DNA from: Bacteroidales bacterium
GTDB taxonomy: Bacteria; Bacteroidota; Bacteroidia; Bacteroidales; VadinHA17
NCBI GenBank assembly: GCA_050013475.1
Contig: JBEKFE010000006.1
Location: 30,892-94,891, forward strand
Length of the DNA: 64,000 bases
Reading direction: 5' to 3'
The notes below the pieces were generated by a model that did no database searches, had not been told where the DNA came from, and was given only the letters and a program-made list of their open reading frames with translations. Below are positions 28,126 to 61,606 of the stretch, in pieces (within the stretch, counting starts at the first letter, position 1; every line of letters starts with the position of its first letter). Both the position numbers and the translations under genes were made by a program.

Positions 28126-28839
28126 ATGGAAAGTCTTTATAATCAGCTTTTAAAGGATATAAGGTTTGTCGAGGGACTCAATGCCTGCATGAACTGTGGC
28201 GTTTGTACAGCGATCTGTCCTGCTGCCGAATTTTATAATTATGATCCAAGGAAAATTGTCGATGAGGTACAGGAGCGGAATGAAGAGACCATAGAGGAAC
28301 TTCTTAAATCAGATACCATCTGGTACTGCGGCGAATGCATGTCGTGCAAGACCAGGTGCCCGCGTGGGAATGCTCCGGGACTTATCATAATGGCACTGCG
28401 GGCACTTTCGCAGGAACTTGGATATTTTGTAGAATCGGAAAAGGGGAGGCAGCAGCTTGCAATAAAAAGAACCGTGGGAGAGTGGATAATTAACCATGGA
28501 TACTGTCTTTATCTTGAGGGGGTTGGAACATCATTGCATCCCGAACAGGGGCCGGTTTGGGATTGGATACAGGAGAACTGGGTTGAACTTTTTAAACGAC
28601 TGGGTGCAAATTATAAAGGCGATGGGCCCGGGATATTGAGGAAAATCCCCGAAGATGCAATGGAAGAGATAAGGGAGATATTCAGGGTTACAGGCGGAAT
28701 GAAAAGGTTCGAGAAGATTGAAGAATTCTCAAGAATAAAAGCAGCGGAGATGTCTTTAAAACTGGATGATGGGATTGACAATGATTATTTCCGATATATT
28801 TATAAAACAGATAATCAGTCCCATACAAGGGACAAATAA
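28126..28839 (+). CDS. hdrC: HdrC-like 2x[4Fe-4S] protein with C-terminal extension (sHdrC1-like)
   Basis: CMNCGVCTAICP and WYCGECMSCKTRCP; extension containing HPEQGPVW. Confidence 0.88.
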   Translation: MESLYNQLLKDIRFVEGLNACMNCGVCTAICPAAEFYNYDPRKIVDEVQERNEETIEELLKSDTIWYCGECMSCKTRCPRGNAPGLIIMALRALSQELGYFVESEKGRQQLAIKRTVGEWIINHGYCLYLEGVGTSLHPEQGPVWDWIQENWVELFKRLGANYKGDGPGILRKIPEDAMEEIREIFRVTGGMKRFEKIEEFSRIKAAEMSLKLDDGIDNDYFRYIYKTDNQSHTRDK

Positions 28840-28848
28840 TATTTCGTA

Positions 28849-29910: not shown

Positions 29911-30952
29911 AGAGATGGATAAGCATGTAGTGGTCATAGGAGGGGGGGTTGCAGGACTTGAGGCAGCCGGTCAGCTGGCAAATGCCGGGATAGAGGTCAG
30001 CCTCATTGAGAAGGAATCTTTAACAGGAGGTCACCTGAATGACTGGTACAGGTTATTTCCCGACAGGAGAGACAGCTCTGAAGTGAAAGCTTATTTTGAT
30101 GAACTCATTTCTCGTGGCGGCATATCGGTTCAGACAAATACCACGATTGAGGATTTTCATCATCATAAAAACCATTTTGACATCACAACAAGTGATGGTA
30201 AAAGCCTGAAAGCTGATGCTGTAATAGTTTCAACAGGGTTCGACCTTTTTAAAAGCTCTAAGAAAGAAGAATATGGCTACGGGATTTATGATAATGTAAT
30301 AACATCCGCTGATCTTGAGACTCTTTTTCGTAAAAATGCGATCAGAACACATAACGGTGCAGAACCGAAGAGGATCGGTATCGTCCATTGCGTCGGTTCA
30401 AGGGATGAAAAGATCGGGAACCTTTATTGTTCAAAGCTATGCTGCGTAACTGCAGTCAAGCAGGCAATCGAGATAAGGGAGCATCTTCCGGAATGCCAGG
30501 TATTCTGTTTTTATATGGACATGAGGATGGGCGGGGCTTATTATGAAGAATTATACAGAGAGGCTCAGGAAAAATGGGGGGTTAATTTTGTAAGAGGCAA
30601 AGTCTCTGAAGCAGGCGAGAATATTGATGGAAAGATAGTTGTAAAGGTTGAGGACACGCTTGCTGGCCGACCTCTCAAAATGGAGGTAGACATACTTGTC
30701 CTGATGGCAGGAATGGAGATCTCTGAAGGAGGTAAATCAATTGCAGAAAAAACCGGGCTTCTTAGAGGCGAGAACAGGTTCTTTTCACCGGCAGATCATC
30801 ATTACGGGAATAACAGGAGCAATATTGAGGGTATTTTTTATGCAGGTACCTGCACAGCCCCGATGAATATTACCGAGACAATTTCCCACGCGCGTGCTGC
30901 GGTAACGGAAGTCGTAAATTATCTTGAAAGGGGCAGCAGGAAAAATGGATAA
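29903..30952 (+). CDS. hdrA: Short HdrA-like flavoprotein (FAD/TrxR domain + one [4Fe-4S])
   Basis: GGGVAG, EYGYG..NVITS, HCVGSRD..YCSKLCC, FYMDMR; no N-terminal or ferredoxin domains. Confidence 0.9.
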   Translation: MAKEMDKHVVVIGGGVAGLEAAGQLANAGIEVSLIEKESLTGGHLNDWYRLFPDRRDSSEVKAYFDELISRGGISVQTNTTIEDFHHHKNHFDITTSDGKSLKADAVIVSTGFDLFKSSKKEEYGYGIYDNVITSADLETLFRKNAIRTHNGAEPKRIGIVHCVGSRDEKIGNLYCSKLCCVTAVKQAIEIREHLPECQVFCFYMDMRMGGAYYEELYREAQEKWGVNFVRGKVSEAGENIDGKIVVKVEDTLAGRPLKMEVDILVLMAGMEISEGGKSIAEKTGLLRGENRFFSPADHHYGNNRSNIEGIFYAGTCTAPMNITETISHARAAVTEVVNYLERGSRKNG

Positions 30953-31289
30953 GTTTGGGTATACCATATCAAAACCAAGGATCATAGACTATGATCTGAA
31001 TGACCGAAGTATTGCAGGCTATATACTGGAACGGGAGAATAGTTTCAGAATATGCATAGAATGCGGAGGTTGCTCAGCAACCTGTACAACAGGTAAGTTT
31101 ACATCATTCAGCCTGAGGGAGCTTCACATTCTTATGAAAAGAGGTGAAAATGAAAAGCCGCGTGAAAAAATCAGGGAGTGTATGCTATGCGGCAAATGCA
31201 CTCTGGTTTGTCCACGGGGCGTGAATACACGAAATGTTATTTTCCTTGCCAGGGAGGCATTCAGAAAACTTGACAACCATGCGCTTTGA
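30945..31289 (+). CDS. Small HdrC-like 2x[4Fe-4S] protein
   Basis: CIECGGCSATC and CMLCGKCTLVCP; ATG overlaps the hdrA stop. Confidence 0.85.
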   Translation: MDKFGYTISKPRIIDYDLNDRSIAGYILERENSFRICIECGGCSATCTTGKFTSFSLRELHILMKRGENEKPREKIRECMLCGKCTLVCPRGVNTRNVIFLAREAFRKLDNHAL

Positions 31290-33183
31290 TCCATTTGTAA
31301 TACCATTTAATATCGGACTATACTTTATAATCATATATAGTGTGGTCAGATGTGTCAGGTGGTTTACAGAACTTTCACGGGCAGATAAATTAAGGTTGCA
31401 GAGAGGGTTTTTCGGACGATCATTCAGCGCCAGTATAAAAGAGGTATTCCTTGAAAGTCTCATTCACAGGAAAATACTTAAGACCAATCCGAGGCTTGGT
31501 TATATGCATATGAGCCTTGCATTCGGGTGGTTCCTCCTTATCCTGTTCGGTACCATTGAAGCGGATGTTTTCGGACTCAGGCATCTCAACCCGCCATCCC
31601 ATGCTATATTTTTCAGATTCTTCAATCCCGACCTTGGAACTTCAGGCTTCGGAGCAGCATATTCATTCCTGATGGACCTGATACTTGCCTTTATCCTGTC
31701 CGGACTTTTCCTTGCAATTCTGAAAAGGTTCACTCCGAAGGCGGTTGGTATGAAGAAGACTACCAGGCTGAAGATCAGGGATAAGGTGGCTCTTACGGCT
31801 TTATGGCTTATCTTCCCGAGCAGGCTTATGGCAGAGAGTCTGACCTGCGGAGCCCACGGCACAGGAAGCTTTCTTACAGGGACACTGGGCTCATTCTTCG
31901 GCTCATTCCTGCCGGCACATCAGCTTGCCTATCCATTCTGGTGGTTATATTCACTCTCCCTGGGTACTTTTTTCATTCTTCTGCCGGTAACAAGATATAT
32001 GCATATTCCTACTGAAATATTTCTGATCTTCATGAGGAATTCGGGCATCCGCACGGGAGACAAAACAGGGTCATTTTCGGAAGTTGAAGTTCACTCCTGC
32101 TCATCCTGCGGGATATGCATAGACAAATGTCAGCTAAATTACAGTGCAGGTATTACCCATATACAATCTGCCTACCTGATGAAGGCAATAAGGAATGATG
32201 GTGATGCATGCGAAATAGCCCGTAACTGCCTGATGTGCGGGAGATGCGAGGAGTCATGTCCTGTCGGCTTAGAAATGTCGGCTATTCGAATGATACAAAG
32301 AAGGGAAGGAGAGAGGAATGGAGAATTCAGGAACATATGGAAAGGATATTATCGTGTCAGACAAGCGCCGATTACGGTAAAACACGCCGAAACTTCCCCG
32401 TACGCATTTCTCCCGGAATGTAAAACAGGGAAGGCTGATGTTATATATTTTGCAGGTTGCATGACGCATCTTACACCTGCGATAAAAAATTCAATGCTAA
32501 GAATATTCAAGGCTGCAAATGAGAAGTTCCTTTTTATGGACAATGAAGGAGGGGTATGCTGCGGCAGGCCGTTGATGCTTGCCGGGCAGGAGAAGGAGGC
32601 AAGGGAGCTGATTAACTTCAATTCAGACATAATCTGGAAATCAGGGGCTCAAACGCTTGTAACTTCATGTCCGATCTGCTATAAGGTATTTCGTGAAAGC
32701 TACTACCTCGATGTTGAAGTGCTTCACCATACGCAGTACATCAAGAGACTTATAGATGAAAAGACGGTAAGGATAAACTATTCGAGAAAGAAAATAGTAT
32801 ATCACGATCCATGCGAACTTGGAAGAGGTTCCGGAATTTATGAAGAACCCCGTAAAATTCTGGAACATGTTGCAGTACTTCAAAAGACAGGCCATGAAGG
32901 AGCAGATTCATTATGCTGCGGGGGAAGCCTTGCAAACCTGAAGATCGATCAGAAAGGAAGGAGAAGGATAGCTTCGGATGTGGTTGCAGTTCTTACCTCG
33001 GGAAAGCCCGATATTCTTGCAACTGCATGTCCGATGTGTAAAAAGATACTTTCAGCCATGACAGACACCAGGGTAGCTGATATAGCTGAGATAGTTGCAG
33101 AAGAGATATCCGATATCCAAAAGAAGAAGAGCATAACATCCGGACTGAATATCAGGGAACTGGTTGATATTTCTCTTCAGTGA
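31279..33183 (+). CDS. Membrane-bound HdrE/HdrD-like fusion: NarI-type TM domain + 2x[4Fe-4S] + two CCG domains
   Basis: About 5-6 TM helices with YMH motifs; CSSCGICIDKC and CLMCGRCEESCP; FAGC..CCG..SCPIC and HDPC..CCGG..ACPMC; likely start MRFDPF. Confidence 0.88.
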   Translation: MRFDPFVIPFNIGLYFIIIYSVVRCVRWFTELSRADKLRLQRGFFGRSFSASIKEVFLESLIHRKILKTNPRLGYMHMSLAFGWFLLILFGTIEADVFGLRHLNPPSHAIFFRFFNPDLGTSGFGAAYSFLMDLILAFILSGLFLAILKRFTPKAVGMKKTTRLKIRDKVALTALWLIFPSRLMAESLTCGAHGTGSFLTGTLGSFFGSFLPAHQLAYPFWWLYSLSLGTFFILLPVTRYMHIPTEIFLIFMRNSGIRTGDKTGSFSEVEVHSCSSCGICIDKCQLNYSAGITHIQSAYLMKAIRNDGDACEIARNCLMCGRCEESCPVGLEMSAIRMIQRREGERNGEFRNIWKGYYRVRQAPITVKHAETSPYAFLPECKTGKADVIYFAGCMTHLTPAIKNSMLRIFKAANEKFLFMDNEGGVCCGRPLMLAGQEKEARELINFNSDIIWKSGAQTLVTSCPICYKVFRESYYLDVEVLHHTQYIKRLIDEKTVRINYSRKKIVYHDPCELGRGSGIYEEPRKILEHVAVLQKTGHEGADSLCCGGSLANLKIDQKGRRRIASDVVAVLTSGKPDILATACPMCKKILSAMTDTRVADIAEIVAEEISDIQKKKSITSGLNIRELVDISLQ

Positions 33184-49137: not shown

Positions 49138-49554
49138 TTAAAGATATTTCCTGTCCTCGTCGGGGACTTCAAAGTACTTGTTATATCTGCTAGCATCCGG
49201 GCCATCCATCATCTCCACTTTTGTGCCCCTGATCTTGTAGGTGCATTTCTCACCGGCGATACCTGAGAAATAGATATTGTACTCCTTTTTATCGTCATCG
49301 ATCATTATAATACGCACAAGGTGGGGATACTTTGCGCTATTCAGCTGGGAATGACATATAGGGCAGGTATAATTATATTCCTCCCCCTCTTTAATTATAA
49401 AGGAAGGATGGGTAGTTGTTGTGTAATTACCCAGTTCAGGATTAAGATAGACCAATCCTCTGAGGGCGCTGTTAACTTTCTGGGCTGCAAGTATTATAGA
49501 AGTTTTTCCATTAAGTACTCCCCTGCATGCCTTGCATAAATATTCAGTTGCCAT
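49138..49554 (-). CDS. Hypothetical protein with two CxxC motifs (Zn/Fe-binding)
   Basis: YLCKAC...YTCPIC; strong SD AGGAGGTG upstream. Confidence 0.75.
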   Translation of the reverse strand: MATEYLCKACRGVLNGKTSIILAAQKVNSALRGLVYLNPELGNYTTTTHPSFIIKEGEEYNYTCPICHSQLNSAKYPHLVRIIMIDDDKKEYNIYFSGIAGEKCTYKIRGTKVEMMDGPDASRYNKYFEVPDEDRKYL

Positions 49555-49776: not shown

Positions 49777-51522
49777 TCATACTGCGAATAATCCATCTAC
49801 CTGTGCAAGTATCTGCTGGTCGGTGAAATGCCGGCCCTTTATGGCTGATGACGGACATGCTGCCACGCATACACCACAGCTCTTGCAGAGAGCACTTATT
49901 ATATGACTGTGTCTTTTTTCTTCGTCGAATTCAATTGCACTATAGGGGCAAAGCTTGTTACAGAACCGGCATCCGGAACATTGTTCCTCATTTACTTCTG
50001 AATAAACTGCATCGACCTCGATCTTCCCTTTTGCGATTCTTGCGAGTATACGAGCAGCGGCTGCCCTTGCCTGAGCAACAGAATCAGGTATATCCTTTGG
50101 AGCAACACATGTCCCGGCAATAAATATTCCGTCAGTTGTAGTCGCAACAGGTTCAAGCTTCGGATGACTTTCGATGAACCATCCGTCTTTGTCCTGGCTG
50201 ATATTTACAAGTCGGGCAATTTCATTTGAGTCTTCCCGGGCTTCCATTCCTACCATAAGGATCACCATATCTGCCGGGATTTCAATATGTTCACCTGAAA
50301 GCTTTTCATTGACTTCTATAAGCATCTCACAGTCATCTTTCGGACCTGCTTTATGGATCACCGGTCTGTCACCTTTTTCGTACATCAGGAATAGTGTTTT
50401 AGCTTCCGATGATTTGCGATAGAAATCTTCATGCCCTTTCCCGAAAGCATGCATATCTATATAGATATCTGAAATATAGCAATCCGGGTTTGCAGACTTG
50501 ATCTCAGAGGCATATTTTAAAGCGGTCATGCAGCAGACCCGCGAGCAATAGGTGTGAAATTCCTTTGACCGGCTTCCCACGCAGTGGATAATAGCCACAT
50601 ATTTGGGCACTTTTCCTTCCTTTGTTTCAATGCTTCCGGCACGTATCATCTTTTCCAGATCGAAAGAAGTAATGACATTTGGTAGTTTTCCGTATCCATA
50701 GTGGACTATCCTGGATGCATCAAATTCCTTATATCCCGTACACACTACAACATTTCCGATCTTCACATTGACCTTCCTCCCCGGATAATTGAATTTATAG
50801 TCATAGGACTGAATTGTTGCCTTAAAATTGCCTATAAAGCCCGTGACCTCTGTCACTTTTGATTCAAGATAAACAATCACTTTTCTGTTATCCTTGATAC
50901 GCGTTATCTTTTCAGTGATCAGATCCCGGGCGGAATAGAGATAAGGTGCCGTAAGATCAACACGTGCAAGGTTCCCGCCAAGATGGTTATCTTTTTCAAC
51001 CAGATAAACAGTATAGCCTGAATCAGCAAGTTCAAGAGCTGCTGTCATACCGGTAATGCCCCCTCCGATAACAAGTACATTAGGGCACATATCAACCGAC
51101 ATGGTCTCGAGTGACTCATGGAGCTCAACACGGCAAACGGCTGCGCAGACAAGAGCTTTGGCTTTTTCAGTTGCTTCAACCGGATCAGTATGTACCCAGC
51201 TGCATTGTTCGCGTATATTGGCCATTTCGAAAAGATACTGATTCAGGCCAGCTGATCTCAGTGCACTACGAAAAGTCCGCTCATGCATATTTGGGCTGCA
51301 GGCAGCGACAACCACGCGATCAAGCTTATGCTCCTTTATATCCTGGGTGATCATCTCCTGTCCGGGATTGGAGCACATGTATTTATAGCTTTTTGCAAGA
51401 ACAACGTTTGGCAGATTGGAGGCGAATCCGGCAACTGCTTCCACATCGACTGCTTTTGCTATATTAGTTCCGCAACAGCAGATATACACTCCTATTCTGG
51501 GTGATTTTTCTTTGTCAGCCAT
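49777..51522 (-). CDS. hdrA: HdrA paralog with N-terminal Fe-S domain and C-terminal ferredoxin, no inserted ferredoxin (HdrA'')
   Basis: YICCCGTNI..YMCS..AACSP..REQCSWVH; GGGITG; HCVGSR..YCSRVCC; CSGCRFCNKLCP and CKSCGVCVAACP. Confidence 0.92.
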   Translation of the reverse strand: MADKEKSPRIGVYICCCGTNIAKAVDVEAVAGFASNLPNVVLAKSYKYMCSNPGQEMITQDIKEHKLDRVVVAACSPNMHERTFRSALRSAGLNQYLFEMANIREQCSWVHTDPVEATEKAKALVCAAVCRVELHESLETMSVDMCPNVLVIGGGITGMTAALELADSGYTVYLVEKDNHLGGNLARVDLTAPYLYSARDLITEKITRIKDNRKVIVYLESKVTEVTGFIGNFKATIQSYDYKFNYPGRKVNVKIGNVVVCTGYKEFDASRIVHYGYGKLPNVITSFDLEKMIRAGSIETKEGKVPKYVAIIHCVGSRSKEFHTYCSRVCCMTALKYASEIKSANPDCYISDIYIDMHAFGKGHEDFYRKSSEAKTLFLMYEKGDRPVIHKAGPKDDCEMLIEVNEKLSGEHIEIPADMVILMVGMEAREDSNEIARLVNISQDKDGWFIESHPKLEPVATTTDGIFIAGTCVAPKDIPDSVAQARAAAARILARIAKGKIEVDAVYSEVNEEQCSGCRFCNKLCPYSAIEFDEEKRHSHIISALCKSCGVCVAACPSSAIKGRHFTDQQILAQVDGLFAV

Positions 51523-51526
51523 TTCA

Positions 51527-52678
51527 CTATTTCATTTTATATAAGTTTTCCGTTTGTCCCTTTGACATCACGGATTTTTTTATTTCCGCAAAATAGATGG
51601 CGAAAGGCCTGTAGGCAAGGTGTGACCATTTGGAGAATGGTACCTCCACGCAGAGCATCGGAACGAGTACAGCCATATGAATTATGTACATATAATATGT
51701 AGCAACCGGCATGCCTTCGATCCTGAATATATGCAAAAGAATCCCCGAAACGGTTGTCATAAATAAAAGGACGATAAAGATCCAGTCGCTTAAATGTGAA
51801 AATTTGAATATCTGTCCAATTTTCTTAATCCGGCCCCAGCTGAAAAAAACCAGGCCAACGAGTAAACCGAAAGTAGAATAATATCCCAGAAGTCTTTGCG
51901 GTTCATACCAGGAATAGATTTTTTCAGTCTGGAACCATTTCAGATTCCCCACTATAAGTGCGAACATCAAAACATATCCCGACATTAAGATCCAGTGAAA
52001 AAACCAGTAGCTTCTGTCTTTGCATTTACTGAACTGCTTCTGTGTGGCGAAATGAACGATAAGTTGGTACAATTTAGTAACATAAAGACGGAAAGGTATC
52101 TTTAAAGACTTATCCTTCAGGAGTGTCAGATACCACATATGGATAATATTTGCAATAAGGAAGCTGGCAATGGAGATCAGCATGATATGTGCCCCGATAT
52201 TCACTGTCTCGACAGGGAACATCTCGTTTATCTTCACTCCTCCGTCGGGTGTCAGGGAGGTCACAATTCCGTGAGGATTGAAAACAGAGAACAGAAGGGC
52301 AATCAGGACCCCTATAACGAATACTGCAGCAAATTCCCACCAGTGGGAAGTATAAAACTTCCTCGACAATCCTGTCAGGTCATATACTGATGTCAGGTAT
52401 CTCCTTAATATCATCATGGTATCTCCCGGATTAGCCTCCCTTGGGCATAAATCCGAGCAGTCGCCGCAATAATAGCACAACCATGGTTCAAGCGTGGTTT
52501 CCACCTTCTTTTCAAGTCCCATTTGCAGCAGCCGGATGGGTTTACGGGGGAATCTGTAAAACTCGTCGGCATGCGGACAAACGGCAGAACAGTCACCGCA
52601 CTGGTAACATAACTGTATGTTTTCCTTGCCAAAACGATCCAGTGCATTTATGAATCCCGGGTTGACTCTGATTGCCAT
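51527..52678 (-). CDS. QmoC-like protein: HdrC-type 2x[4Fe-4S] domain fused to a heme-b-type transmembrane domain
   Basis: CYQCGDCSAVCP, WLCYYCGDCSDLCP, LRRYL, then TM helices with FFHWILMSGYVLM and IIHMAVL..FSKWSHLAYRP; likely start MAIRVNP. Confidence 0.85.
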   Translation of the reverse strand: MAIRVNPGFINALDRFGKENIQLCYQCGDCSAVCPHADEFYRFPRKPIRLLQMGLEKKVETTLEPWLCYYCGDCSDLCPREANPGDTMMILRRYLTSVYDLTGLSRKFYTSHWWEFAAVFVIGVLIALLFSVFNPHGIVTSLTPDGGVKINEMFPVETVNIGAHIMLISIASFLIANIIHMWYLTLLKDKSLKIPFRLYVTKLYQLIVHFATQKQFSKCKDRSYWFFHWILMSGYVLMFALIVGNLKWFQTEKIYSWYEPQRLLGYYSTFGLLVGLVFFSWGRIKKIGQIFKFSHLSDWIFIVLLFMTTVSGILLHIFRIEGMPVATYYMYIIHMAVLVPMLCVEVPFSKWSHLAYRPFAIYFAEIKKSVMSKGQTENLYKMK

Positions 52679-52688
52679 GGTAAGATTT

Positions 52689-54491
52689 TTATACTGTTTG
52701 AATATTCTTAGCCTTTGCTTCGATCTCACTGAGCGGGATGCTGCTCATATGTCCTATACCTCTCTTTGTTGTGAGGCTTCTGAGCACACCGGCTGCCACC
52801 GCAGATGCCTGGGCCACCGTATCGGGAATATCCTTTGGACCCTGGCACATTCCGGCCACATATATACCCCCTTTTTCAGTATCAGTCGGGCTGCCGTTGT
52901 AATTCAGTTCTGAAAACCATCCGTCAGTATCCTTGCTGATATCCAGCATTTTGACTAATTCATTTGTGCCGGAGGAAGGAATAAGACCAACTGCAAGGAC
53001 AACCATATCAACATTGAATTCAGCTAATCTGTCATTAATGATATCCTCACCCCTGACGACCATTTGACCGTTATTCATGGTAACTTTAGCCGAATGTCCG
53101 CGAATTATTAAAGTCCCTTCCTCCTTGATACGGTCAGCAAATTCCTCATAACCTTTTCCGAAGGCACGCATATCGATGTAAAACTCATAAACTGTGACAT
53201 TTGGGATCTTCTCTTTTATCAGATGTGCAAATTTCAGGGAATACATGCAGCATACCCTTGAGCAATACGAGTTGTATTTTTTATTTCTGGATCCTACGCA
53301 GTGGATAAGGGCAACACTTTTTGGGGGTACACCATCTGGCAAAAAGACCCATTCATCCTTTTCTGTTTTTTTATTAAAACGTTTGGTTTTAGTGACGATC
53401 TTTCCGCCTGTGGTCCCTGATGCATTGGTGAGGCGCTCAAATTCAAGTGAAGTCAGTACATTTGGATACAGGCCATATCCATACTGTTCTATTTTACTGA
53501 CATCCATAAGCTCATATCCTATGGCCAGGATGATGTTTCCCACCTCTATATCGAGAAAATGGTCGGTTTCGTTAAGGTTAATGCATTCCTTGGGACATTT
53601 TTTTACACAGACGCCGCATTTTTTTCCACCAGAAAGGATATAGGTGCATTTTGAAGCATCAACGAGGTAGGCATTCGGAACAGCCTGTGGAAACGGGATA
53701 TAGATCGCTTTTCTCAAAGAAATTCCGGCATCGAATTCACTTTCCACCTTAACCGGGCAAACTTCCACACATTGATTACATGCAACACACGATCTGACAT
53801 CTACAAACCTTGCGCTTTGTTTTATCTTCACATGGTAAGCACCAGGTTTCCCGGTAACGGCCACAACCTTTGATTTGGTCAACAGCTGGATCATCTCATG
53901 CTGTCCAACCGTAACCATTTTAGGAGTCAGGATACAGGCAGCGCAATCCAGTGTCGGGAACGTTTTGTCAAACATGGCCATATGTCCTCCGATCGTTCCT
54001 GTCTGTTCAACCAGATAAACCGGTTTACCTGCGTTTGCTATCTCGAGGGCAGATTGTATTCCGGCTATGCCGCCTCCTATGATAAGAGTCGAGTGATTGA
54101 CCGGATTTCCAACAGGTATAGCAGCTAGCGGAAAAGGAACAGCCATGGTTGCACAGGCTACTATAGCTTTTGCTCGATCCATCGCATTTTCTCCTCTTGC
54201 ACCGTGCTCCATGAAAGAAGCAAGACGTATTTCATCAGTATTGCCTCCCGCCAATGCCATCGCTTTGGTAAAGGCCGGTTTATAATAACCGGGCATATCT
54301 CCTGCGATAACAATCCTTCCCAGGTTATTTGTCCTGATGAGCTCATTAAGGATTTTTACATCAAGACGAGGCTTTACCCCCAGCATCTGGACAATATCAA
54401 CATTCGGAAGATTTGCAGCATATTTTGCAATGGAATCAATATTCAGATCCTTGCTCTGGTCTACCTGACAGAAAAAGACTCCTACTCGCAT
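52689..54491 (-). CDS. hdrA: HdrA paralog with inserted ferredoxin domain, degenerate N-terminal domain and no C-terminal ferredoxin (HdrA')
   Basis: GGGIAG, KTFPTLDCAAC, CVACNQCVEVCP..CGVCVKKCP, HCVGSR..YCSRVCC, GPKDIPDTVAQ. Confidence 0.92.
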   Translation of the reverse strand: MRVGVFFCQVDQSKDLNIDSIAKYAANLPNVDIVQMLGVKPRLDVKILNELIRTNNLGRIVIAGDMPGYYKPAFTKAMALAGGNTDEIRLASFMEHGARGENAMDRAKAIVACATMAVPFPLAAIPVGNPVNHSTLIIGGGIAGIQSALEIANAGKPVYLVEQTGTIGGHMAMFDKTFPTLDCAACILTPKMVTVGQHEMIQLLTKSKVVAVTGKPGAYHVKIKQSARFVDVRSCVACNQCVEVCPVKVESEFDAGISLRKAIYIPFPQAVPNAYLVDASKCTYILSGGKKCGVCVKKCPKECINLNETDHFLDIEVGNIILAIGYELMDVSKIEQYGYGLYPNVLTSLEFERLTNASGTTGGKIVTKTKRFNKKTEKDEWVFLPDGVPPKSVALIHCVGSRNKKYNSYCSRVCCMYSLKFAHLIKEKIPNVTVYEFYIDMRAFGKGYEEFADRIKEEGTLIIRGHSAKVTMNNGQMVVRGEDIINDRLAEFNVDMVVLAVGLIPSSGTNELVKMLDISKDTDGWFSELNYNGSPTDTEKGGIYVAGMCQGPKDIPDTVAQASAVAAGVLRSLTTKRGIGHMSSIPLSEIEAKAKNIQTV

Positions 54492-54542
54492 AATTATCTA
54501 TGATTGATTATCTTATAAATCATCTTTTACGGTCGAAGAATA

Positions 54543-56006
54543 TTAATCTCTTATCACACGCTGCGTCAATTCTCCTCCGGCATCACGAATTTCAAGAATC
54601 ATTGGCATTTCTCCGGGAAGGCTATGAGTAGCACATGAAAAACACGGGTCATATGCCCTGAAAGCCATTTCGATCATATTCAGAGTGCCGGCGGTCACTT
54701 CAACTCCTTTTTTGATCAGACCAGCCGCAGCTTTTTTTATCGACATGCTGATTGCCGCATGATTATTTGTAGTTCCGACGATAAGATTTACTTTGGTAAC
54801 AATTCCTTTGTTGTCGGTGAAATAATGGTGTGTCAGAGTTCCTCTCTGGGCTTCAACGATTCCTACACCTTCACCTGGAATTGACCCTAACTGTGCCCGT
54901 AATTCTTTACCGGTAATCTCATCATCCCGGGCGAGTTCCAGACATCTTTCAGCAGAATATAAAAGCTCCACAAGCCTTGCCCAGTGCATAGCAAGTGTTG
55001 CATGGACTGGTTTGCCTCCAAGTGTGCTGTACATGCGTTCATATTCTTTTTGTGCCAGAGGAGTGGCCATTCCATCAGCTGCATTTAACCTCGATAATGG
55101 TGTGGCCTGGTAAACCCCTGAATTCTGCCCCTCGGTAAATCCTTTCCATCCAATCTTTTTAAGATATGGGAACTTAAGATAACTCCAGGGTTCAACATGT
55201 TCTGCTACATAATTGAGATACTCAGGTGGAGAATATTTGTACAACTCTTTTCCTTCTGTATCCACCACCCTTACTTTTCCATCATAAAAGTTTACCTTAT
55301 TGTTGGAATCAACGAGACCCATTGAATGAAGTTTGAGGGAATATGGACCGTTAAGTATAATATCGACGTACTGTTTATTATCAAGCACGAAATTTTGAAA
55401 AACATTGAGAGAAAACTTTGCGAATTCCACGAACCCCTTTGCTTTTTCGACAACATCATCACGCTCTTTTACGGAAAGTCCTCTTCGTACTCCACCCGGG
55501 ATATTCATTACAACAAAAGTCTGATGTCCACCCAGGAGTGCCTGTATTTCCTGCGCCAGGCGACGTTGTTTAATTACTTCCGTTCCGATTTCCTTTCCAA
55601 CCTTTTCAATTACTCCAAGGATATTTCTTTTAGCAGCTGGAGCATCCGGGCCTAAAACAAAATCCGGTGCAGCCAGTGCATAAAAATTGGCTATATGACT
55701 ATGGATAAAATGTGCCATGTAAAAAAGCTCCCTGAGTTTTTTAGCTGTTGGCGGAGGTTCGACACCAAATACAGCATCAACAGCTTTTCCTGAAGCCATA
55801 TGATGACAACCAGGGCAGACTCCGCATATTTTTGCGACGATTGCTGGGAGTTCTTCAACAGGTCTTCCCTCGCAGAATTTTTCAAAACCTCTCAGTTCCG
55901 GAACCTGAAAATATACATTATCAACTTCTCCGTCATCATTAAGAAAAATTTCTATTTTACCATGACCTTCGAGTCGCGTAATAGGATCAATCGTGATTCT
56001 TTTCAT
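54543..56006 (-). CDS. mvhA: [NiFe]-hydrogenase large subunit, group 3c (MvhA)
   Basis: TRLEGHG, RGFEKF, L1 KICGVCPGCH, L2 AYDPCFSCATH with cleavable C-terminal tail. Confidence 0.95.
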   Translation of the reverse strand: MKRITIDPITRLEGHGKIEIFLNDDGEVDNVYFQVPELRGFEKFCEGRPVEELPAIVAKICGVCPGCHHMASGKAVDAVFGVEPPPTAKKLRELFYMAHFIHSHIANFYALAAPDFVLGPDAPAAKRNILGVIEKVGKEIGTEVIKQRRLAQEIQALLGGHQTFVVMNIPGGVRRGLSVKERDDVVEKAKGFVEFAKFSLNVFQNFVLDNKQYVDIILNGPYSLKLHSMGLVDSNNKVNFYDGKVRVVDTEGKELYKYSPPEYLNYVAEHVEPWSYLKFPYLKKIGWKGFTEGQNSGVYQATPLSRLNAADGMATPLAQKEYERMYSTLGGKPVHATLAMHWARLVELLYSAERCLELARDDEITGKELRAQLGSIPGEGVGIVEAQRGTLTHHYFTDNKGIVTKVNLIVGTTNNHAAISMSIKKAAAGLIKKGVEVTAGTLNMIEMAFRAYDPCFSCATHSLPGEMPMILEIRDAGGELTQRVIRD

Positions 56007-56977
56007 GATAATTTTCTCCTTATTAGTGAGACAGGCAGACTAAATCTGTAGAATAATCCGGCCGGGTCTACAATATCGTCAATTACCCTGTTAATTTCTT
56101 CCGGTTCCTTTTCATCTATTATACTTCCGATTGCTGACATCATTTTGGTTCCGGGATCAGTTACACCGGGTGTAGGTCCGTAGCAGCCACGGCATGGAGC
56201 ATTGCCTTTAATGCATCGATAACCGCATCCCTCCCTGGTCGCAGGTCCCATGCATATGACCCCCTGCTCCATAAAGCAGGTTTCGCCATCATCAGTTATT
56301 TCCCACGGGCGGTAAAACTTTTTTATCTGCTTGTTCTCTGTTTTCTTCCTGATACACTCATCGCATTGAGCCCTTATCCCGGCTCCGATAACGGAACCTT
56401 TTGGCGGAAGTTCATCTCCGCTGACTATTGCAGCAAATACCTCGAGGAACCTTTCTGTCTGAGGAGGACAACCGGGGATGAAATAATCTACCTCAACGGT
56501 TTGTGAGAGGGAACGGACATCATTATAAAAAACAGGTATCTCGAGTACGCCTTCCTTTACTTTATTTTCAGAAAGAGGTCTTGTTTTTTCAGGGTTGATC
56601 GTTGATTCACTTTCTTCATAAACTCTCCGGAATATATCCTCTTTGGTTGAAAAATTGGCCAGTCCCGGAATACCCCCAAGATGCGAGCAACTGCCATAAG
56701 CAACAAGAGTTTTGCTTTTCTTTCTTAAGAGTTTGGCCATATGCTCGTTCTCGCTGTTCCTTACAGCACCGTTAAATAGTGTGAGATCAATATAATTATC
56801 TGGCATTTCTTCGACATCTTTGTATTTGATATCCAGAGCAATAGGCCAGAATACAAAATCGGCAGCCTCTATAACATCAAAAAGCTTCTCGTGTACATCA
56901 AGAACTGATACACAACAACCGCCGCAGGCAGAAGCCCAATAAACGGCAAGTTTAAGTTTTGGCTTTGATCCTTCCAT
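56003..56977 (-). CDS. mvhG: [NiFe]-hydrogenase small subunit (MvhG)
   Basis: ACGGC, YGSC, PGCPP, CDEC, CFMEQGVICMGP..GC..C..NAPCRGCYG. Confidence 0.95.
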   Translation of the reverse strand: MEGSKPKLKLAVYWASACGGCCVSVLDVHEKLFDVIEAADFVFWPIALDIKYKDVEEMPDNYIDLTLFNGAVRNSENEHMAKLLRKKSKTLVAYGSCSHLGGIPGLANFSTKEDIFRRVYEESESTINPEKTRPLSENKVKEGVLEIPVFYNDVRSLSQTVEVDYFIPGCPPQTERFLEVFAAIVSGDELPPKGSVIGAGIRAQCDECIRKKTENKQIKKFYRPWEITDDGETCFMEQGVICMGPATREGCGYRCIKGNAPCRGCYGPTPGVTDPGTKMMSAIGSIIDEKEPEEINRVIDDIVDPAGLFYRFSLPVSLIRRKLS

Positions 56978-56994
56978 GGCACAAAAATTAATAT

Positions 56995-57420
56995 CTATGT
57001 TAAGACATTCAGCGTCTCTTTTATTTTGGATTGTCCCAATTCTGTTATAGTTTCTGTAAAACTATCGATCAACTCAGCGAATTGCTTACCCTCACTGGCG
57101 CTTATCCATTCAAGTTTAAGTCTTTCTGTCTCAATACCCATCTGGGTGATGTATTTCTGCAACAACTCGTACCTCCGGAGACACCTGTAATTGCCCTCCT
57201 GATAATGACAGTCACCCGGGTGACAGCCACAAAGCAGCACACCATCGGCACCATTGGTAAATGCCTTGAGTACAAATGTAGGTTCTATCCGGCCTGAGCA
57301 CATAACCTTGACAATCCTCACATTGGGTTTATACACCATCCGTGATGTACCTGCCAGATCTGCACCGGTGTACGAGCACCATTTGCAGAGAAATGCAATG
57401 ATCCGGGGTTTAAATTCCAT
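56995..57420 (-). CDS. mvhD: Hydrogenase [2Fe-2S] adaptor subunit (MvhD)
   Basis: FLCKWCSY, VMCSGR, GCHPGDCHY, WISASEG. Confidence 0.96.
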   Translation of the reverse strand: MEFKPRIIAFLCKWCSYTGADLAGTSRMVYKPNVRIVKVMCSGRIEPTFVLKAFTNGADGVLLCGCHPGDCHYQEGNYRCLRRYELLQKYITQMGIETERLKLEWISASEGKQFAELIDSFTETITELGQSKIKETLNVLT

Positions 57421-57526
57421 TTTACTGACTCATTTATTTAATGAAAAACATCAACAATAATGACTTTTGTCATAGATCAAAAATTCAATAAAAAGTTAGC
57501 AAACAATTTTTGAAAATATTATGATT

Positions 57527-57544
57527 AAGTGAAGTATTTCACAA
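57527..57544. promoter_or_regulatory. Rex operator upstream of mvhD
   Basis: AAGTGAA-GTAT-TTCACAA vs consensus TTGTGAA-N4-TTCACAA (12/14). Confidence 0.75.
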
Positions 57545-57837
57545 TAAGTAATCTGATAAATCTTTATGGGATGTTATATTTTCAGATAAATAATTGTTTT
57601 CGTATCTGTAATATATTTATTGTGCTGATTGAATTATAGAATAATAAAAAAATGCGTAAGAGATTATATATTAGTATATAAACAACATTAATAAGAAAAA
57701 AATGATCGGGATTTAATAGTCTCGAAAGAGAGTTTATTTTATATTTAAATCAATATGGTCACTAAAAATCATGGCTTTGAAAAAATATTTCAGAAAGAGA
57801 GAAAAAAACGATATAGAATAATGATAATCCTGAAATA

Positions 57838-57855
57838 AAATGAAACTATTCACAA
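57838..57855. promoter_or_regulatory. Rex-type operator
   Basis: AAATGAA-ACTA-TTCACAA (11/14). Confidence 0.6.
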
Positions 57856-57924
57856 TAAATTATAAAAATAAAATCAGGAATTTTCCATAATTATCTTTGC
57901 CTTCTTAACTTTTTAAAGCTGTTT

Positions 57925-58395
57925 TTATTGAACAATAATCCACCTGACTTTTTCCAGTACCTTTTCGAGTATTTCGGGATACTTTTTCTTTAATTCCAGA
58001 GTGAATTCTTCACTGAATTCCATATCTTCAATGATCTCAATGGCAATTATATGCAGATCTTCCGGCAGATCCAGATTCAGAGTACGACCCAGTTTAAGGG
58101 CTGTGAGGAATGATACATCGTGAAGATTAGACAGATGCAAAGTGTCCTGGAAATCAGAAGGGATAAAATAATATACATCACCTGGCTTGCCTTCGCGGGT
58201 GCGGATCGCATCTATGAAAATAACCCGCTTAAAATCCCTGATGTGATCAATTATCTCCAGACCACCGCAGCCAGCCTTTTCATAATCAAGATCCGGATCG
58301 CTGATCATTTTCCCGATGTCATCGACAAGCCGGAAACCAATACCATCATCTGTCAGGATATTATTCCCGATTCCCAGGATCAAAGTTTTTTTCAT
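57925..58395 (-). CDS. Hydrogenase maturation endopeptidase (HycI/HybD family)
   Basis: LGIGNNILTDDGIG, IFIDAI, NLHDV. Confidence 0.93.
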   Translation of the reverse strand: MKKTLILGIGNNILTDDGIGFRLVDDIGKMISDPDLDYEKAGCGGLEIIDHIRDFKRVIFIDAIRTREGKPGDVYYFIPSDFQDTLHLSNLHDVSFLTALKLGRTLNLDLPEDLHIIAIEIIEDMEFSEEFTLELKKKYPEILEKVLEKVRWIIVQ

Positions 58396-58680: not shown

Positions 58681-58698
58681 ACGTGAAACAATTCACAA
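58681..58698. promoter_or_regulatory. Rex operator overlapping the rex start codon (autoregulation)
   Basis: ACGTGAA-ACAA-TTCACAA (12/14). Confidence 0.7.
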
Positions 58699-59321
58699 GA
58701 AATATTATTAAAAACAGTCTTAAGAGGATCTTCCTGTATCGGGCATGTTTACTGCGACAAAAACTGATGGGGGTTGAAAAGGTCTTTTCCTATACCCTTG
58801 CCAAGGAGACAGGAGTTACACCTGACCAGGTACGGAAAGACTTCTCGGAGTTCAAAATTACCGGGAATAAGAGGGGAGGATATGATATTAATGAACTGCT
58901 CGAAAAAATGGAAATAATATTCCATCGTAACAAGGACAACAATATTGTACTTGTCGGGATGGGCAACATGGGTCTGGCATTATCGAAATACGGTAAGTTC
59001 CTTCAGAGGCATATGAACATTGTTGCCACATTCGACATAGATCCTTTTAAGCAGAAAATGAGATCGGGTATTCCTGTTTATTCAATGAACCGGTTAAAAG
59101 AAATAATCGACAGGTTCAATGTCAAAGTGGCAATAGTCGCTGTTCCGGAAATTTCTGCACAGGAGGTTGTTGATGAGCTCCTCAGTTATGGTATAAAGGG
59201 GATAGTGAACTTTGCTCCGGGTCTGCTGAAGGTACCGCAGGCAGTGGTAATTAATAATGTTAACCTTTGCGATGAACTTGAGAGTGTTATTTATTATGTT
59301 CACAAGATAATGGAGTCATAG
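58683..59321 (+). CDS. rex: Redox-sensing transcriptional repressor Rex
   Basis: wHTH QVRKDFS..GNKRGGY, Rossmann GMGNMGLAL, GIVNFAP. Confidence 0.93.
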   Translation: MKQFTRNIIKNSLKRIFLYRACLLRQKLMGVEKVFSYTLAKETGVTPDQVRKDFSEFKITGNKRGGYDINELLEKMEIIFHRNKDNNIVLVGMGNMGLALSKYGKFLQRHMNIVATFDIDPFKQKMRSGIPVYSMNRLKEIIDRFNVKVAIVAVPEISAQEVVDELLSYGIKGIVNFAPGLLKVPQAVVINNVNLCDELESVIYYVHKIMES

Positions 59322-59341: not shown

Positions 59342-61606
59342 ATTAAAAAGGGATATGAAATATTAATAAGAGGGCTCGTGCAGGGTGTCGGGTTCCGTCC
59401 ATTTATCTACAGGCTGGCGGCATTATATCAATTAAATGGCAAGGTAGATAACAGGGCTAATGGCGTAATGATCAATGTTGAGGGTGAAGAGGAGAAAGTC
59501 CTTAAATTCAAAGATCATATTCTGATGTCTCCACCTGCCGCATCTCAAATCAAGTCAGTCGAAATAAGACAAACTGATCTAGCAGGCTACGAAAACTTTT
59601 TTATTGATATTAGTAAATCAGGGGATTCCGAAATTACTGAGATAAGTCCCGATATAGCCGTCTGCTCAGATTGCCTTGAGGATCTTCAGAATGACCCGGA
59701 AAGAATTGATTACGCGTTTACAAACTGCACTAATTGCGGACCAAGATTTACAATTGTTGAAGGACTTCCTTACGACAGGAATAAGACATCTATGAAAGAT
59801 TTCAGGATGTGTGATCATTGTGCTTCGGAATATACAGATATATTGAATCGCAGATTTCACGCTCAGCCGGTCGCCTGTAACTCTTGCGGTCCTGTCTTTT
59901 CTCTTGAAGTGAATGGGCAAAGAATTGAGGAGATCAGCGACATATTAGATGTTGTCTCCGGCAGGATAATGGATGGGAGATCTGTGGCGATAAAGGGACT
60001 TGGCGGTTATCACCTGCTCTGTAATGCCTTGGATGATAAAGCGGTTAAAGAGCTGAGATCGAGAAAGCACCGTGATGCAAAACCTTTTGCTGTGATGTTC
60101 AGGGATATCCTGTCAGCTGAAGAATATTGCTTCGTGAATCCGGCAGAATATCGCGAACTTACATCATGGCGGAGACCAATACTTATACTTAAGCAGAAGA
60201 AAGCCCTTGCCCAATCTGTAAATAACGGACTTGGTACTATTGGTGCTATTCTCCCTTACATGCCGATTCATTATCTCCTCTTAAGCAGGCTGGAAACACC
60301 GGTCATTGTACTGACAAGCGGTAATATTTCAGATGAACCGCTGATAAAGGATGATAATCTGGCCCACGAAAGCCTCCAACCGATAACCGGGGCCATTATG
60401 AGCTACAACAGGGAAATAGTAAACAGGGCTGATGATTCGGTTGTAAGAATAATCGGGAACAGGATCAGTATTATACGTCGTTCCAGGGGATATGTGCCAT
60501 CTCCCGTTGATCTGGCATACAATGTTGACGGTGTTCTGGCCCTTGGAGCTGAGCAAAAGAACAGCTTTTGCATTGGCAGAGATAAGCAGGCAATAATGAG
60601 CCAGTTCATCGGGGACCTTAAAAACCTGCCGGTATACGAATTCTATTTGGAATCTCTTGCACGTTTTAAAGATCTTTTCAGGTTCAAACCGGAGTTTCTG
60701 GTCTGTGATATGCATCCCGATTATCTCTCTTCCTTTCATGCGCAGAAGCTTGAAAGCGAGCTTAATATTCCTTTGATAAGGGTGCAGCACCATCATGCAC
60801 ATATAGCCTCATGCATGGCAGAGCACCATCTGGATGAAAAAGTAATTGGCCTCAGTATGGACGGGACAGGCTTCGGAGCAGACGGAAATATTTGGGGGGG
60901 AGAGTTCCTGGTTGCAGATCTGAAAGAGTTCCGCCGGTACACTCATTTCGATTATGTCCCATTGCCTGGAGCCAATAAGGCAGTCGAGGAACCATGGAGG
61001 ATGGCATTCTCTTACCTTTATAAATATTTCAGGAATGAAATTGATTATAATGCAATTCCTTGTTTCAAATCTGTTAATACCGGCGAGATGAACCTTCTCA
61101 GGGAAATGATTGATAAAAACATTAATTCACCATTAAGCTCAGGAGCAGGGCGTTTATTTGATGCCGTATCTGCAATGCTGGGATTATGCTCAGTTGCCGG
61201 TTTTGACTCAGAAGCACCGATAAGACTGGAGTCAGTAATTGACGGTGAAACTGACAAGCATTATCCATACCAAATTGGCACTACTGTTGTTTTTGCAGAA
61301 ACACTTCGGGCACTCCTTGATGATCTGGGAAAAGAAGGAGTTTCAATTATTTCTTCAAAATTTCATAATACGGTAGCCAGGGCCATTGCAGATGTTTCTG
61401 AAAAGATGAGGGCAGAGACTTCAATTAATAAGGTAGTACTCTCCGGAGGAGTGTTCCAGAATAAATACCTCACGGAAAAATTAACAAACATTCTGATAAG
61501 AAAAAAATTTGAGGTATTTTCAAATCAGCTGGTGCCTGCAAATGATGGTGGTATCTCGCTGGGACAGTTGATAGTTGCATCTAAAACAATTGGATTATGT
61601 GCTTAA
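59342..61606 (+). CDS. hypF: Carbamoyltransferase HypF (start uncertain: ATT 59342 or GTG 59378)
   Basis: VQGVGFRPF, two CxxC-X18-CxxC Zn fingers, RRFHAQP, KGLGG, QHHHAH, PANDGGISLGQ. Confidence 0.96.
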   Translation: MKKGYEILIRGLVQGVGFRPFIYRLAALYQLNGKVDNRANGVMINVEGEEEKVLKFKDHILMSPPAASQIKSVEIRQTDLAGYENFFIDISKSGDSEITEISPDIAVCSDCLEDLQNDPERIDYAFTNCTNCGPRFTIVEGLPYDRNKTSMKDFRMCDHCASEYTDILNRRFHAQPVACNSCGPVFSLEVNGQRIEEISDILDVVSGRIMDGRSVAIKGLGGYHLLCNALDDKAVKELRSRKHRDAKPFAVMFRDILSAEEYCFVNPAEYRELTSWRRPILILKQKKALAQSVNNGLGTIGAILPYMPIHYLLLSRLETPVIVLTSGNISDEPLIKDDNLAHESLQPITGAIMSYNREIVNRADDSVVRIIGNRISIIRRSRGYVPSPVDLAYNVDGVLALGAEQKNSFCIGRDKQAIMSQFIGDLKNLPVYEFYLESLARFKDLFRFKPEFLVCDMHPDYLSSFHAQKLESELNIPLIRVQHHHAHIASCMAEHHLDEKVIGLSMDGTGFGADGNIWGGEFLVADLKEFRRYTHFDYVPLPGANKAVEEPWRMAFSYLYKYFRNEIDYNAIPCFKSVNTGEMNLLREMIDKNINSPLSSGAGRLFDAVSAMLGLCSVAGFDSEAPIRLESVIDGETDKHYPYQIGTTVVFAETLRALLDDLGKEGVSIISSKFHNTVARAIADVSEKMRAETSINKVVLSGGVFQNKYLTEKLTNILIRKKFEVFSNQLVPANDGGISLGQLIVASKTIGLCA

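Follow-up and report, generated by a model that had tools for sequence, protein, structure and literature searches.

Two HdrA-like flavoproteins, encoded beside a hydrogenase and each lacking a different half of the cofactor sites of a complete HdrA, raise the question of whether two incomplete subunits can together make up one electron-bifurcating enzyme. They lie in a stretch of 64,000 nucleotides from a Bacteroidales bacterium (GTDB lineage VadinHA17; assembly GCA_050013475.1, contig JBEKFE010000006.1, positions 30,892 to 94,891), hereafter the window; the source genome comprises 3.46 Mb in 30 contigs and is 98.8% complete. Seven genes on the minus strand (49777-58395) are concerned, in the order hycI-like protease, mvhD, mvhG, mvhA, hdrA', qmoC-like and hdrA''. 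We propose, with a probability of roughly 0.6, that these genes encode a membrane-anchored MvhAGD-HdrA'/HdrA''-QmoC-like complex that would couple H2, menaquinone and ferredoxin by bifurcation, possibly reversibly. The observations from which this proposal starts are the gene content, the patterns of cofactor ligands, their conservation and the co-occurrence of the genes. Protein family calls are Pfam and NCBIfam profile matches, and the two HdrA calls come from alignment to solved HdrA and from motifs:

57925-58395, minus: HycI-family hydrogenase maturation protease, at the head of the cluster (PF01750 at 1.3e-09)
56995-57420, minus: mvhD, [2Fe-2S] connector subunit, a separate protein (PF02662 FlpD at 1.1e-55)
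56003-56977, minus: mvhG, [NiFe]-hydrogenase small subunit (PF01058 at 2.2e-23)
54543-56006, minus: mvhA, [NiFe]-hydrogenase large subunit (PF00374 at 4e-33)
52689-54491, minus: hdrA', the putative 'core' subunit, 600 aa (alignment, motifs)
51527-52678, minus: QmoC-like gene, between hdrA' and hdrA'' (NF038018 qmoC match)
49777-51522, minus: hdrA'', the putative 'arm' subunit, 581 aa (alignment, motifs)

The row from mvhD to hdrA'' is tight, with spacing from a 4-base overlap (mvhG/mvhA) up to 51 bases; between mvhD and the protease gene upstream of it there are 504 bases.

Complementary cofactor sites in two HdrA paralogs

Both paralogs possess the HdrA core, that is, a flavoprotein of the thioredoxin reductase (TrxR) fold with a flavin adenine dinucleotide (FAD) loop and a CxGSR..CxxxCC cluster. 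Of the four further HdrA modules (N-terminal cluster, Cys pair, inserted ferredoxin and C-terminal ferredoxin), each paralog holds two. The initial annotation had described HdrA' as having lost the N-terminal cluster Cys and the C-terminal ferredoxin while keeping the inserted ferredoxin and TFPTLDCAAC, with HdrA'' as its mirror image, and alignment of both to the solved HdrA chains confirms this description (best PDB matches of HdrA' and HdrA'', E 1.7e-132 and 2.4e-152; 5odc_A, 8rvu_a). The N-domain of HdrA' retains only C8 of the five cluster Cys, with FFCQ..VDQ in place of CHCGVNI, AGDMPGYY in place of AACSPRLH and MEHGA in place of REHCS, and the protein stops about 30 residues past the TrxR fold, so that the C-terminal ferredoxin is absent. 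It carries the TFPTLDCAAC pair (residues 177-186), both inserted-ferredoxin motifs intact (CVACNQCVEVC, 235-245; CGVCVKKCP, 292-300) and the CVGSR/CSRVCC cluster (398-415). HdrA'' aligns to 8rvu in two blocks (6-238 and 248-577 onto 10-243 and 322-651), and the inserted ferredoxin of about 80 residues is therefore missing from it. It has the N-domain C15, C17, C50, C75 and C107, the CVGSR/CSRVCC cluster (314-331) and two CxxCxxCxxxC motifs (515-525 and 546-556), and its Cys pair is replaced by LTAPYLYSARD (190-200). Both have the FAD loop, PKDIP and the Lys that follows CC. NCBIfam HdrA2 scores for HdrA' and HdrA'' are 516 and 603, under the cut-off of 1100. In window coordinates:

54117-54491, minus: HdrA' N-domain, lacking cluster Cys
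54060-54077, minus: HdrA' FAD loop
53934-53963, minus: HdrA' TFPTLDCAAC pair
53556-53819, minus: HdrA' inserted 2x[4Fe-4S] ferredoxin
53247-53300, minus: HdrA' TrxR-domain cluster Cys
51103-51522, minus: HdrA'' N-domain with C15/C17/C50/C75/C107
51049-51066, minus: HdrA'' FAD loop
50923-50955, minus: HdrA'' LTAPYLYSARD, replacing the Cys pair
50530-50583, minus: HdrA'' TrxR-domain cluster Cys
49780-50025, minus: HdrA'' C-terminal 2x[4Fe-4S] ferredoxin

To these we aligned relatives, giving 78 HdrA' (the window and 77 loci) and 60 HdrA'' (the window and 59 loci) once rows that covered less than about 93% of the query or contained internal stops had been discarded. Numbered after the complete HdrA of the same genome (P0132), the Cys are present as follows:

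C11, C44, C69: HdrA' 0/78; HdrA'' 60/60
C101: HdrA' 1/78; HdrA'' 52/60
C191/C194: HdrA' 78/78; HdrA'' 0/60
Eight inserted-ferredoxin Cys: HdrA' 78/78; HdrA'' absent in 59-60/60
Four TrxR-cluster Cys: HdrA' 78/78; HdrA'' 60/60
C-terminal ferredoxin Cys: HdrA' absent; HdrA'' 60/60 in seven of eight columns (the eighth is misaligned)

Tabulated in this way, the pattern first noticed in the single pair stands: it is essentially invariant in the 78 and 60 sequences, more than chance would give. The FAD-loop glycines, the Lys after CC and PKDIP are likewise conserved across both families, which bears out the earlier statement that the FAD loop, CVGSR..CSRVCC and the Lys were kept in both paralogs. 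The Cys-poor N-domain of HdrA' is full length and the least conserved of its long domains (mean identity 0.49, versus 0.63-0.75); the N-domain of HdrA'' has a mean identity of 0.66.

The two genes also travel together. The scan with HdrA', using one genome per species, yielded at least 542 confirmed relatives among 600 listed pattern matches, and the best 80 of them were taken as genome loci; the scan with HdrA'' yielded 80 metagenome contigs with identities of 73% or more, hence mostly of the window's clade. Counting solely loci whose contig has sufficient flank, a QmoC-like gene and HdrA'' accompany HdrA' in 67/67 and 62/62 genome loci, and a QmoC-like gene and HdrA' accompany HdrA'' in 61/61 and 50/50 metagenome loci. 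Each paralog thus always occurs with the other, and the gene order hdrA'-qmoC-hdrA'' is seen in every related locus having enough flank. With room on both sides, mvhA stands beside this triad in 39 of 41 genome loci and 29 of 32 metagenome loci. Pairwise identities of HdrA' and HdrA'' correlate (r = 0.948; 59 loci, 1711 pairs) and their clades branch congruently; the correlation shows co-inheritance as a unit and by itself does not show contact. A sample of 300 Bacteroidota genomes queried with HdrA'' gave no ortholog beyond the source genome and is uninformative on co-occurrence; its 11 matches are 38-49% identical, and nine of them lie in fused open reading frames (ORFs) of 1033-1494 aa.

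Eleven phylum names occur among the best 80 loci of the HdrA' scan: Bacteroidota (37 loci), Actinomycetota (13), Acidobacteriota (10), Myxococcota (5), Candidatus Krumholzibacteriota (2) and six further phyla with one locus each, seven loci being unlabelled. The mvhDGA genes lie upstream of the triad in 22 loci, all Bacteroidota, and downstream in 39 loci from many phyla.

Fused forms are common among relatives. Of the 150 best representatives of HdrA' relatives in a library of 1.84 billion proteins, 111 are at least 900 aa long, and 90 of these carry a ferredoxin motif both in the first third and at the C-terminal end and have no N-terminal CxC[GS]. By their motifs, these 90 are single chains in which the arm-type half comes after the core-type one. 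The nearest HdrA' representatives in that library are mostly proteins of about 1000-1530 aa that contain at least two HdrA units (P0134-P0282), and some of the multi-HdrA forms of about 1300-1500 aa have a third FAD-loop motif.

The QmoC-like subunit and the comparison with Qmo

Where would the high-potential electrons of such a pair go? The initial annotation, in reading the locus as an HdrA pair, overlooked the gene between the two hdrA genes. Its product has the sequence features of a QmoC-like protein, with a cytochrome b domain and sites for two [4Fe-4S] clusters: it matches NF038018 qmoC (5e-57, 194 bits; cut-off 300), joins an HdrC-like domain to a cytochrome b and contains six hydrophobic segments. 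The start is likely the ATG at 52678; the listed ORF begins at GTG 52729, which would overlap hdrA'. The predicted domains are:

52385-52678, minus: HdrC-like 2x[4Fe-4S] domain (Cys motifs 52577-52609 and 52445-52477)
51530-52357, minus: six-helix cytochrome-b-like membrane domain

Within the family, the eight Cys for two [4Fe-4S] clusters are invariant (58/58). So are His245, His351, His370 and Cys236 (n=58), which are also found in true QmoC, and His226 is present in 49/58. Neither the operon nor the flank families conserved across the best 80 loci include a CCG/HdrB gene, and the seven CCG matches in the source genome all lie outside the operon. With a QmoC-like subunit present and no HdrB linked, the high-potential branch most likely ends in the quinone pool and not in a disulfide. 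Because it is the QmoC-like subunit that defines this branch, the complex is better described as Qmo-like than as HdrABC, and the reading as an HdrA pair needs this correction. A plain HdrABC annotation is ruled out by the lack of a linked HdrB, and for the same reason these genes should not be annotated as heterodisulfide reductase.

The likeness to canonical Qmo is considerable. In both systems two HdrA paralogs accompany an HdrC-cytochrome b fusion, and the true qmoABC of a reference genome (G004; QmoA P0129, QmoB P0130, QmoC P0131; qmoC 446 bits) shows the same division of sites. Like HdrA', QmoA combines a Cys pair (CPPNC) and an inserted ferredoxin with the TrxR cluster and lacks the C-terminal ferredoxin; like HdrA'', QmoB has the N-terminal Cys and the C-terminal ferredoxin and neither Cys pair nor inserted ferredoxin. 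True QmoC and the QmoC-like protein of the window share eight Cys, three His and one Cys. There are, however, several differences. QmoA has no N-domain at all, whereas HdrA' retains one without its Cys; QmoB carries MvhD fused at its C-terminus, whereas in the window HdrA'' extends no further than its C-terminal ferredoxin, and MvhD has a gene of its own beside mvhGA; and the canonical order is A-B-C next to apr, whereas here it is A'-C-A''. The two QmoC proteins are 27% identical, and the 194 bits of the window's fall short of a cut-off that true QmoC exceeds with 446. In blastp comparisons, HdrA' and HdrA'' score 382 and 388 bits against the complete HdrA of their own genome and 205 and 188 against QmoA/QmoB.

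A tree of the shared TrxR-domain columns (87 rows x 343 columns; IQ-TREE, LG+C20+F+G4 by posterior mean site frequencies) points the same way. The window and 18 of the best 80 loci, selected to cover their spread, gave 37 HdrA'/HdrA'' rows, one HdrA'' being absent. To these were added nine Qmo pairs, seven complete HdrA, six short forms and nine fused proteins cut in halves, with an sHdrA-like ORF of the window as outgroup; the QmoA of L184 and L185, which lie at contig ends, were excluded. QmoA and QmoB form their own clade (100/100), and HdrA' and HdrA'' fall in a separate one (100/97), which also takes in one complete and one short representative. Forcing HdrA' together with QmoA made the tree 110 log-likelihood units worse (p-AU, from the approximately unbiased test, 0.00018; the group was named after a quick tree had been seen). 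The same arm/core split may thus have arisen through separate duplications, or the partner domains may evolve in concert. On fused MvhD, apr linkage, the qmoC cut-off and clade placement alike, the window's genes differ from canonical QmoABC. A canonical Qmo serving adenosine 5'-phosphosulfate reductase is ruled out, since neither aprA nor dsrA was found in the 98.8% complete genome, QmoC is under the cut-off and the clade is separate.

A better match is the 'type II' QmoAB(C) of Neukirchen et al. 2023 (PMC10504309, with reference to their ref. 43), which is said to be more like typical hdrA than like bacterial qmoAB, to stem from an assembly event of its own, and to occur with or without Dsr/Apr in a role stated to be unclear. 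The window agrees with that description in tree placement and in its lack of apr and dsr; its paralogs resemble typical HdrA more closely than canonical QmoAB, and they are accompanied by a QmoC-like protein, so that in this sense it is Qmo-like, the likeness being one of description. The examples named there, V. moutnovskia and A. degensii, are sulfate reducers, and Mvh linkage is not mentioned in the accessible part of that paper.

A predicted H2, menaquinone and ferredoxin complex

The hydrogenase module would supply the entry point. MvhA has both Ni-binding Cys motifs (CGVCPGCH, residues 61-68; DPCFSCATH, 453-461), and PF00374 matches the source genome only twice, both times inside mvhA, which is thus the genome's only [NiFe] large subunit. 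MvhG has 13 Cys. The best NCBIfam matches of the subunits are VhuA, VhuG and VhuD, all under the equivalog cut-offs (MvhG against NF045875 VhuG, 224 bits, cut-off 450; MvhD against NF045873 VhuD, 125 bits, cut-off 215). With its large and small subunits and MvhD, the enzyme is of the Mvh type, which we take to be group 3c. The genome also encodes plausible partners: pyruvate:ferredoxin oxidoreductase (PFOR; 1918 bits), two PF02621 futalosine-pathway matches and three UbiA-family genes.

The methanogen MvhAGD-HdrABC complex (PDB 5ODC, 8RVU, 9SW2-9SW6) shares the hydrogenase module, the HdrA fold and the cofactor sites, as well as a trans logic in which the arm of one HdrA works with the core of the other. 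As set out in Chadwick et al. 2022 (PMC9012536), the N-terminal cluster of one HdrA is completed by Cys197 of its partner, a residue of the TFPTxDCxxC segment, which makes the dimer obligate. In the model given in the 2025 Nature paper on Elp-Hdr and the 2026 Science Advances paper on Mvh-Hdr-Fmd, the Cys202/Cys205 pair sits between MvhD and the partner's FAD, high-potential electrons leave via the TrxR-domain cluster HA4', and low-potential electrons are taken up by the arm shuttle cluster HA3 and handed on to the partner's inserted ferredoxin with its clusters HA5' and HA6'. The structural premises of the initial annotation, among them that a partner Cys approaches the N-terminal cluster and that the inserted ferredoxin is the low-potential exit, are borne out by these papers. 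The methanogen HdrA is a symmetric homodimer with two full pathways, whereas the window's paralogs each keep half of the sites; likewise, the methanogen high-potential branch ends in HdrBC and the heterodisulfide, whereas the window has a QmoC-like quinone module and no linked HdrB.

Homology to these systems suggests the heterodimer, the docking partner of QmoC, the quinone and ferredoxin partners, bifurcation and its direction. HdrA'' would be the arm, its N-terminal cluster domain and C-terminal ferredoxin docking MvhD and carrying the shuttle cluster. HdrA' would be the stationary core that is served in trans, holding the bifurcating FAD, the Cys pair close to that flavin, the inserted ferredoxin and the TrxR-domain cluster. 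Electrons from H2 would pass through MvhA, MvhG and MvhD to the FAD of HdrA'; the high-potential electron would then take the TrxR-domain cluster of HdrA', the two QmoC [4Fe-4S] clusters and the b haems to menaquinone (MK), and the low-potential electron would reach ferredoxin (Fd) by way of the HdrA'' shuttle cluster and then the ferredoxin inserted in HdrA'. The net reaction would be 2 H2 + MK + 2 Fd(ox) -> MKH2 + 2 Fd(red), and in reverse reduced ferredoxin and menaquinol could drive H2 evolution. The cofactor sites required by the methanogen model for flavin-based bifurcation are present, and the activity is predicted from them. An obligate heterodimer with one trans pathway, as the initial annotation had supposed, fits the complementary losses, their complete conservation and the strict two-way co-occurrence.

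Could the two paralogs simply form separate homodimers with separate roles, their linkage reflecting co-regulation? The solved HdrA proteins are indeed homodimers. However, a homodimer of HdrA'' would have no partner Cys for its N-terminal cluster and no low-potential exit, and one of HdrA' would be without the arm domains by which MvhD is held in the solved methanogen complexes. Strict co-occurrence from both sides, the co-divergence of the two proteins and the many relatives in which a single chain bears both halves likewise argue against separate homodimers, which we regard as very improbable. A simpler possibility is that the heterodimer does not bifurcate at all and acts as a plain wire, either an H2:menaquinone oxidoreductase or a menaquinol-driven H2 producer, whose inserted ferredoxin has no soluble partner. 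Reduction of menaquinone by H2 is strongly exergonic alone, the QmoC-like haem and FeS ligands are conserved and the Mvh genes are adjacent, all of which speaks for such a wire. A plain wire would, on the other hand, need neither the Cys pair nor two flavoproteins, nor the inserted-ferredoxin and N-terminal clusters whose Cys are kept, all eight in 78/78 HdrA' and in 60/60 HdrA'' respectively. In the methanogen enzyme those clusters serve solely the low-potential branch. We consider the wire unlikely.

Slightly less likely still is a function closer to that of canonical Qmo, in which electrons would move between the quinone pool and a cytoplasmic acceptor (a thiol, sulfur or other reductase), with H2 as co-donor through Mvh in a confurcating reaction. 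The complementary architecture of canonical QmoA/QmoB speaks for it, as do the proposal by Ramos 2012 of a hydrogenase as co-donor for Qmo, the occurrence of type II Qmo with or without Apr/Dsr, and an sHdr-like hdrC-B-A-C-B cluster 20 kb away in the window. Against it stand the missing aprA and dsrA and the lack of any conserved candidate acceptor gene in the flanks of the best 80 loci, where the most frequent families are the protease (46 loci), histidine kinases (24) and response regulators (16). The inserted ferredoxin of HdrA' also aligns with the domain that is the exit to ferredoxin or polyferredoxin in the methanogen enzyme.

Several points nevertheless weigh against the bifurcating heterodimer. 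Both paralogs retain FAD, the Lys and the TrxR-domain cluster, so a single-path model, such as the one trans path of the initial annotation, leaves the second flavin site and cluster unexplained; nor is there an evident reason, under the arm/core model, for HdrA' to keep its Cys-less N-domain. The HdrA, Vhu and QmoC scores all fall under curated NCBIfam cut-offs. No classical menA was found in the genome, and menaquinone synthesis rests on the futalosine-pathway matches. The genome's only hydrogenase could also be claimed by a competitor, a complete cluster of the symmetric type on another contig (C3, at about 247.5-251.2 kb; L004, L010) of hdrC, hdrB, hdrA, mvhD and a gene for a 266-aa FeS protein. 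The HdrA there is the complete one (P0132, 667 aa), which holds all four modules, and no hydrogenase lies beside that cluster. In five related loci with room for it (L070, L075, L169, L170 and L172) mvhA is not adjacent, so the triad may use other donors.

Two further loci (L069 and L072) also show no adjacent mvhA, with flanks too short to judge, and an MvhD-like gene lies 3-5 kb upstream of the triad in L070, L072 and L075. In all these loci without an adjacent mvhA the electron donor may differ.

Whether this family amounts to a widespread bacterial membrane-bound hydrogenase, in which menaquinone as high-potential acceptor drives ferredoxin reduction by H2 or the reverse, and in which an obligate HdrA heterodimer has split into arm and core separately from QmoAB, we would put at even odds. 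Should the proposed reaction be right, H2 could serve anaerobes of 11 or more named phyla to reduce ferredoxin at low potential, with the quinone pool bearing the cost, or, alternatively, they could vent electrons as H2 from menaquinol and ferredoxin. If the family is such an enzyme, its routine annotation as 'MvhADG/HdrABC heterodisulfide-linked hydrogenase' in metagenome-assembled genomes (MAGs) of Bacteroidota, Acidobacteriota, Actinomycetota and others is wrong, and a split of HdrA that recurred independently in the same place would be natural evidence that bifurcation can do with a single trans pathway. Since each of the divided cofactor sites exists only once, such a 'half-site' dimer would offer a ready asymmetric system for probing the trans, mobile-arm mechanism proposed for methanogen Hdr.

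Published relatives and neighbouring genes

The finding is real, conserved and mechanistically coherent; it has precedents in print for the concept of the heterodimer, for the parallel with Qmo and for the H2/menaquinone/ferredoxin hypothesis. The heterodimer put forward by the initial annotation is supported in part and is not new, the same split being present in QmoA/QmoB and in print for HdrA of anaerobic methanotrophic archaea (ANME). Our contribution lies in confirmation, breadth and conservation statistics rather than in discovery or a new principle. Chadwick et al. 2022 (PMC9012536) proposed heterodimeric HdrA assembled from complementary paralogs, with the two-fold symmetry broken, for tandem and fused HdrA of ANME and for the HdrA of the Moorella MetFV-HdrABC-MvhD. 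As described there, one copy has Cys197 and no N-domain, the presence of the C-terminal ferredoxin is complementary as it is in the window, and the long fused relatives of HdrA' match their fused forms. The contexts differ, being archaeal or acetogenic with no QmoC-like subunit in the accessible account, and the Cys197-bearing copy has lost its N-domain there, whereas HdrA' keeps one without Cys.

Closest in gene content is a cluster of MvhAGD, two HdrA and a QmoC-HdrC fusion in methanogenic Archaeoglobi, reported in preprints by Buessecker et al. (10.1101/2022.12.01.518715) and Lynes et al. (10.1101/2023.09.08.556235). For Ca. Methanoglobus, the cluster was hypothesised to bifurcate electrons from H2 to menaquinone and ferredoxin, and it was highly transcribed in culture, at 995-2,431 reads per kilobase per million (RPKM). 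Gene content and proposed function match the window by description only; that cluster is archaeal, and a complementary Cys and domain pattern is not among its features in the accessible descriptions. We found no published description of the cluster in Bacteroidota or other bacteria, supplementary material not being covered; passages of PMC6085437, PMC2702500 and PMC12142623 gave nothing on it. The HdrA'/HdrA'' family may already appear as type II Qmo in supplementary figures of Neukirchen 2023. A group 3c [NiFe] hydrogenase of an Ignavibacteria MAG bears the usual annotation MvhADG/HdrABC (PMC7509429).

Divergent from the operon upstream lie a gene for a Rex-like redox-sensing regulator (Put_DNA-bind_N + CoA_binding; 58683-59321, plus) and hypF (59378-61606, plus); elsewhere, in other phyla, these neighbours give way to genes for histidine kinases and response regulators. 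An ORF of 138 aa with two CxxC pairs (49138-49554, minus) lies 222 bases downstream of hdrA''. It gave no match in Pfam and NCBIfam searches, and its tblastn matches are confined to the two closest loci (L012 and L013).

The second Hdr-like cluster of the window (28126-33183, plus), 20 kb from the operon, comprises:

28126-28839, plus: HdrC-like protein
28849-29910, plus: CCG/HdrB-like protein
29903-30952, plus: short HdrA-like flavoprotein, 349 aa, without ferredoxin domains
30924-31289, plus: small Fer4 protein
31234-33183, plus: 649-aa protein with two CCG domains

Its layout resembles the sHdr clusters of sulfur oxidisers, which is odd in a genome without dsrA or aprA.

Four loci from Actinomycetota, Acidobacteriota and 'Deltaproteobacteria' (L041, L046, L052 and L056) have, a few kb from the cluster, a second mvhDGA set with an HdrA 42-46% identical to HdrA'. 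Since this set neighbours hdrA'-qmoC-hdrA''-mvhDGA, both systems coexist in one genome. By word sharing only, no RNA runs were listed as sharing the sampled words, and the only sequencing run that shares more than half of them (0.70, against 0.50 for the next) may be the source sample; the runs that share them are labelled as peat or wetland metagenomes.

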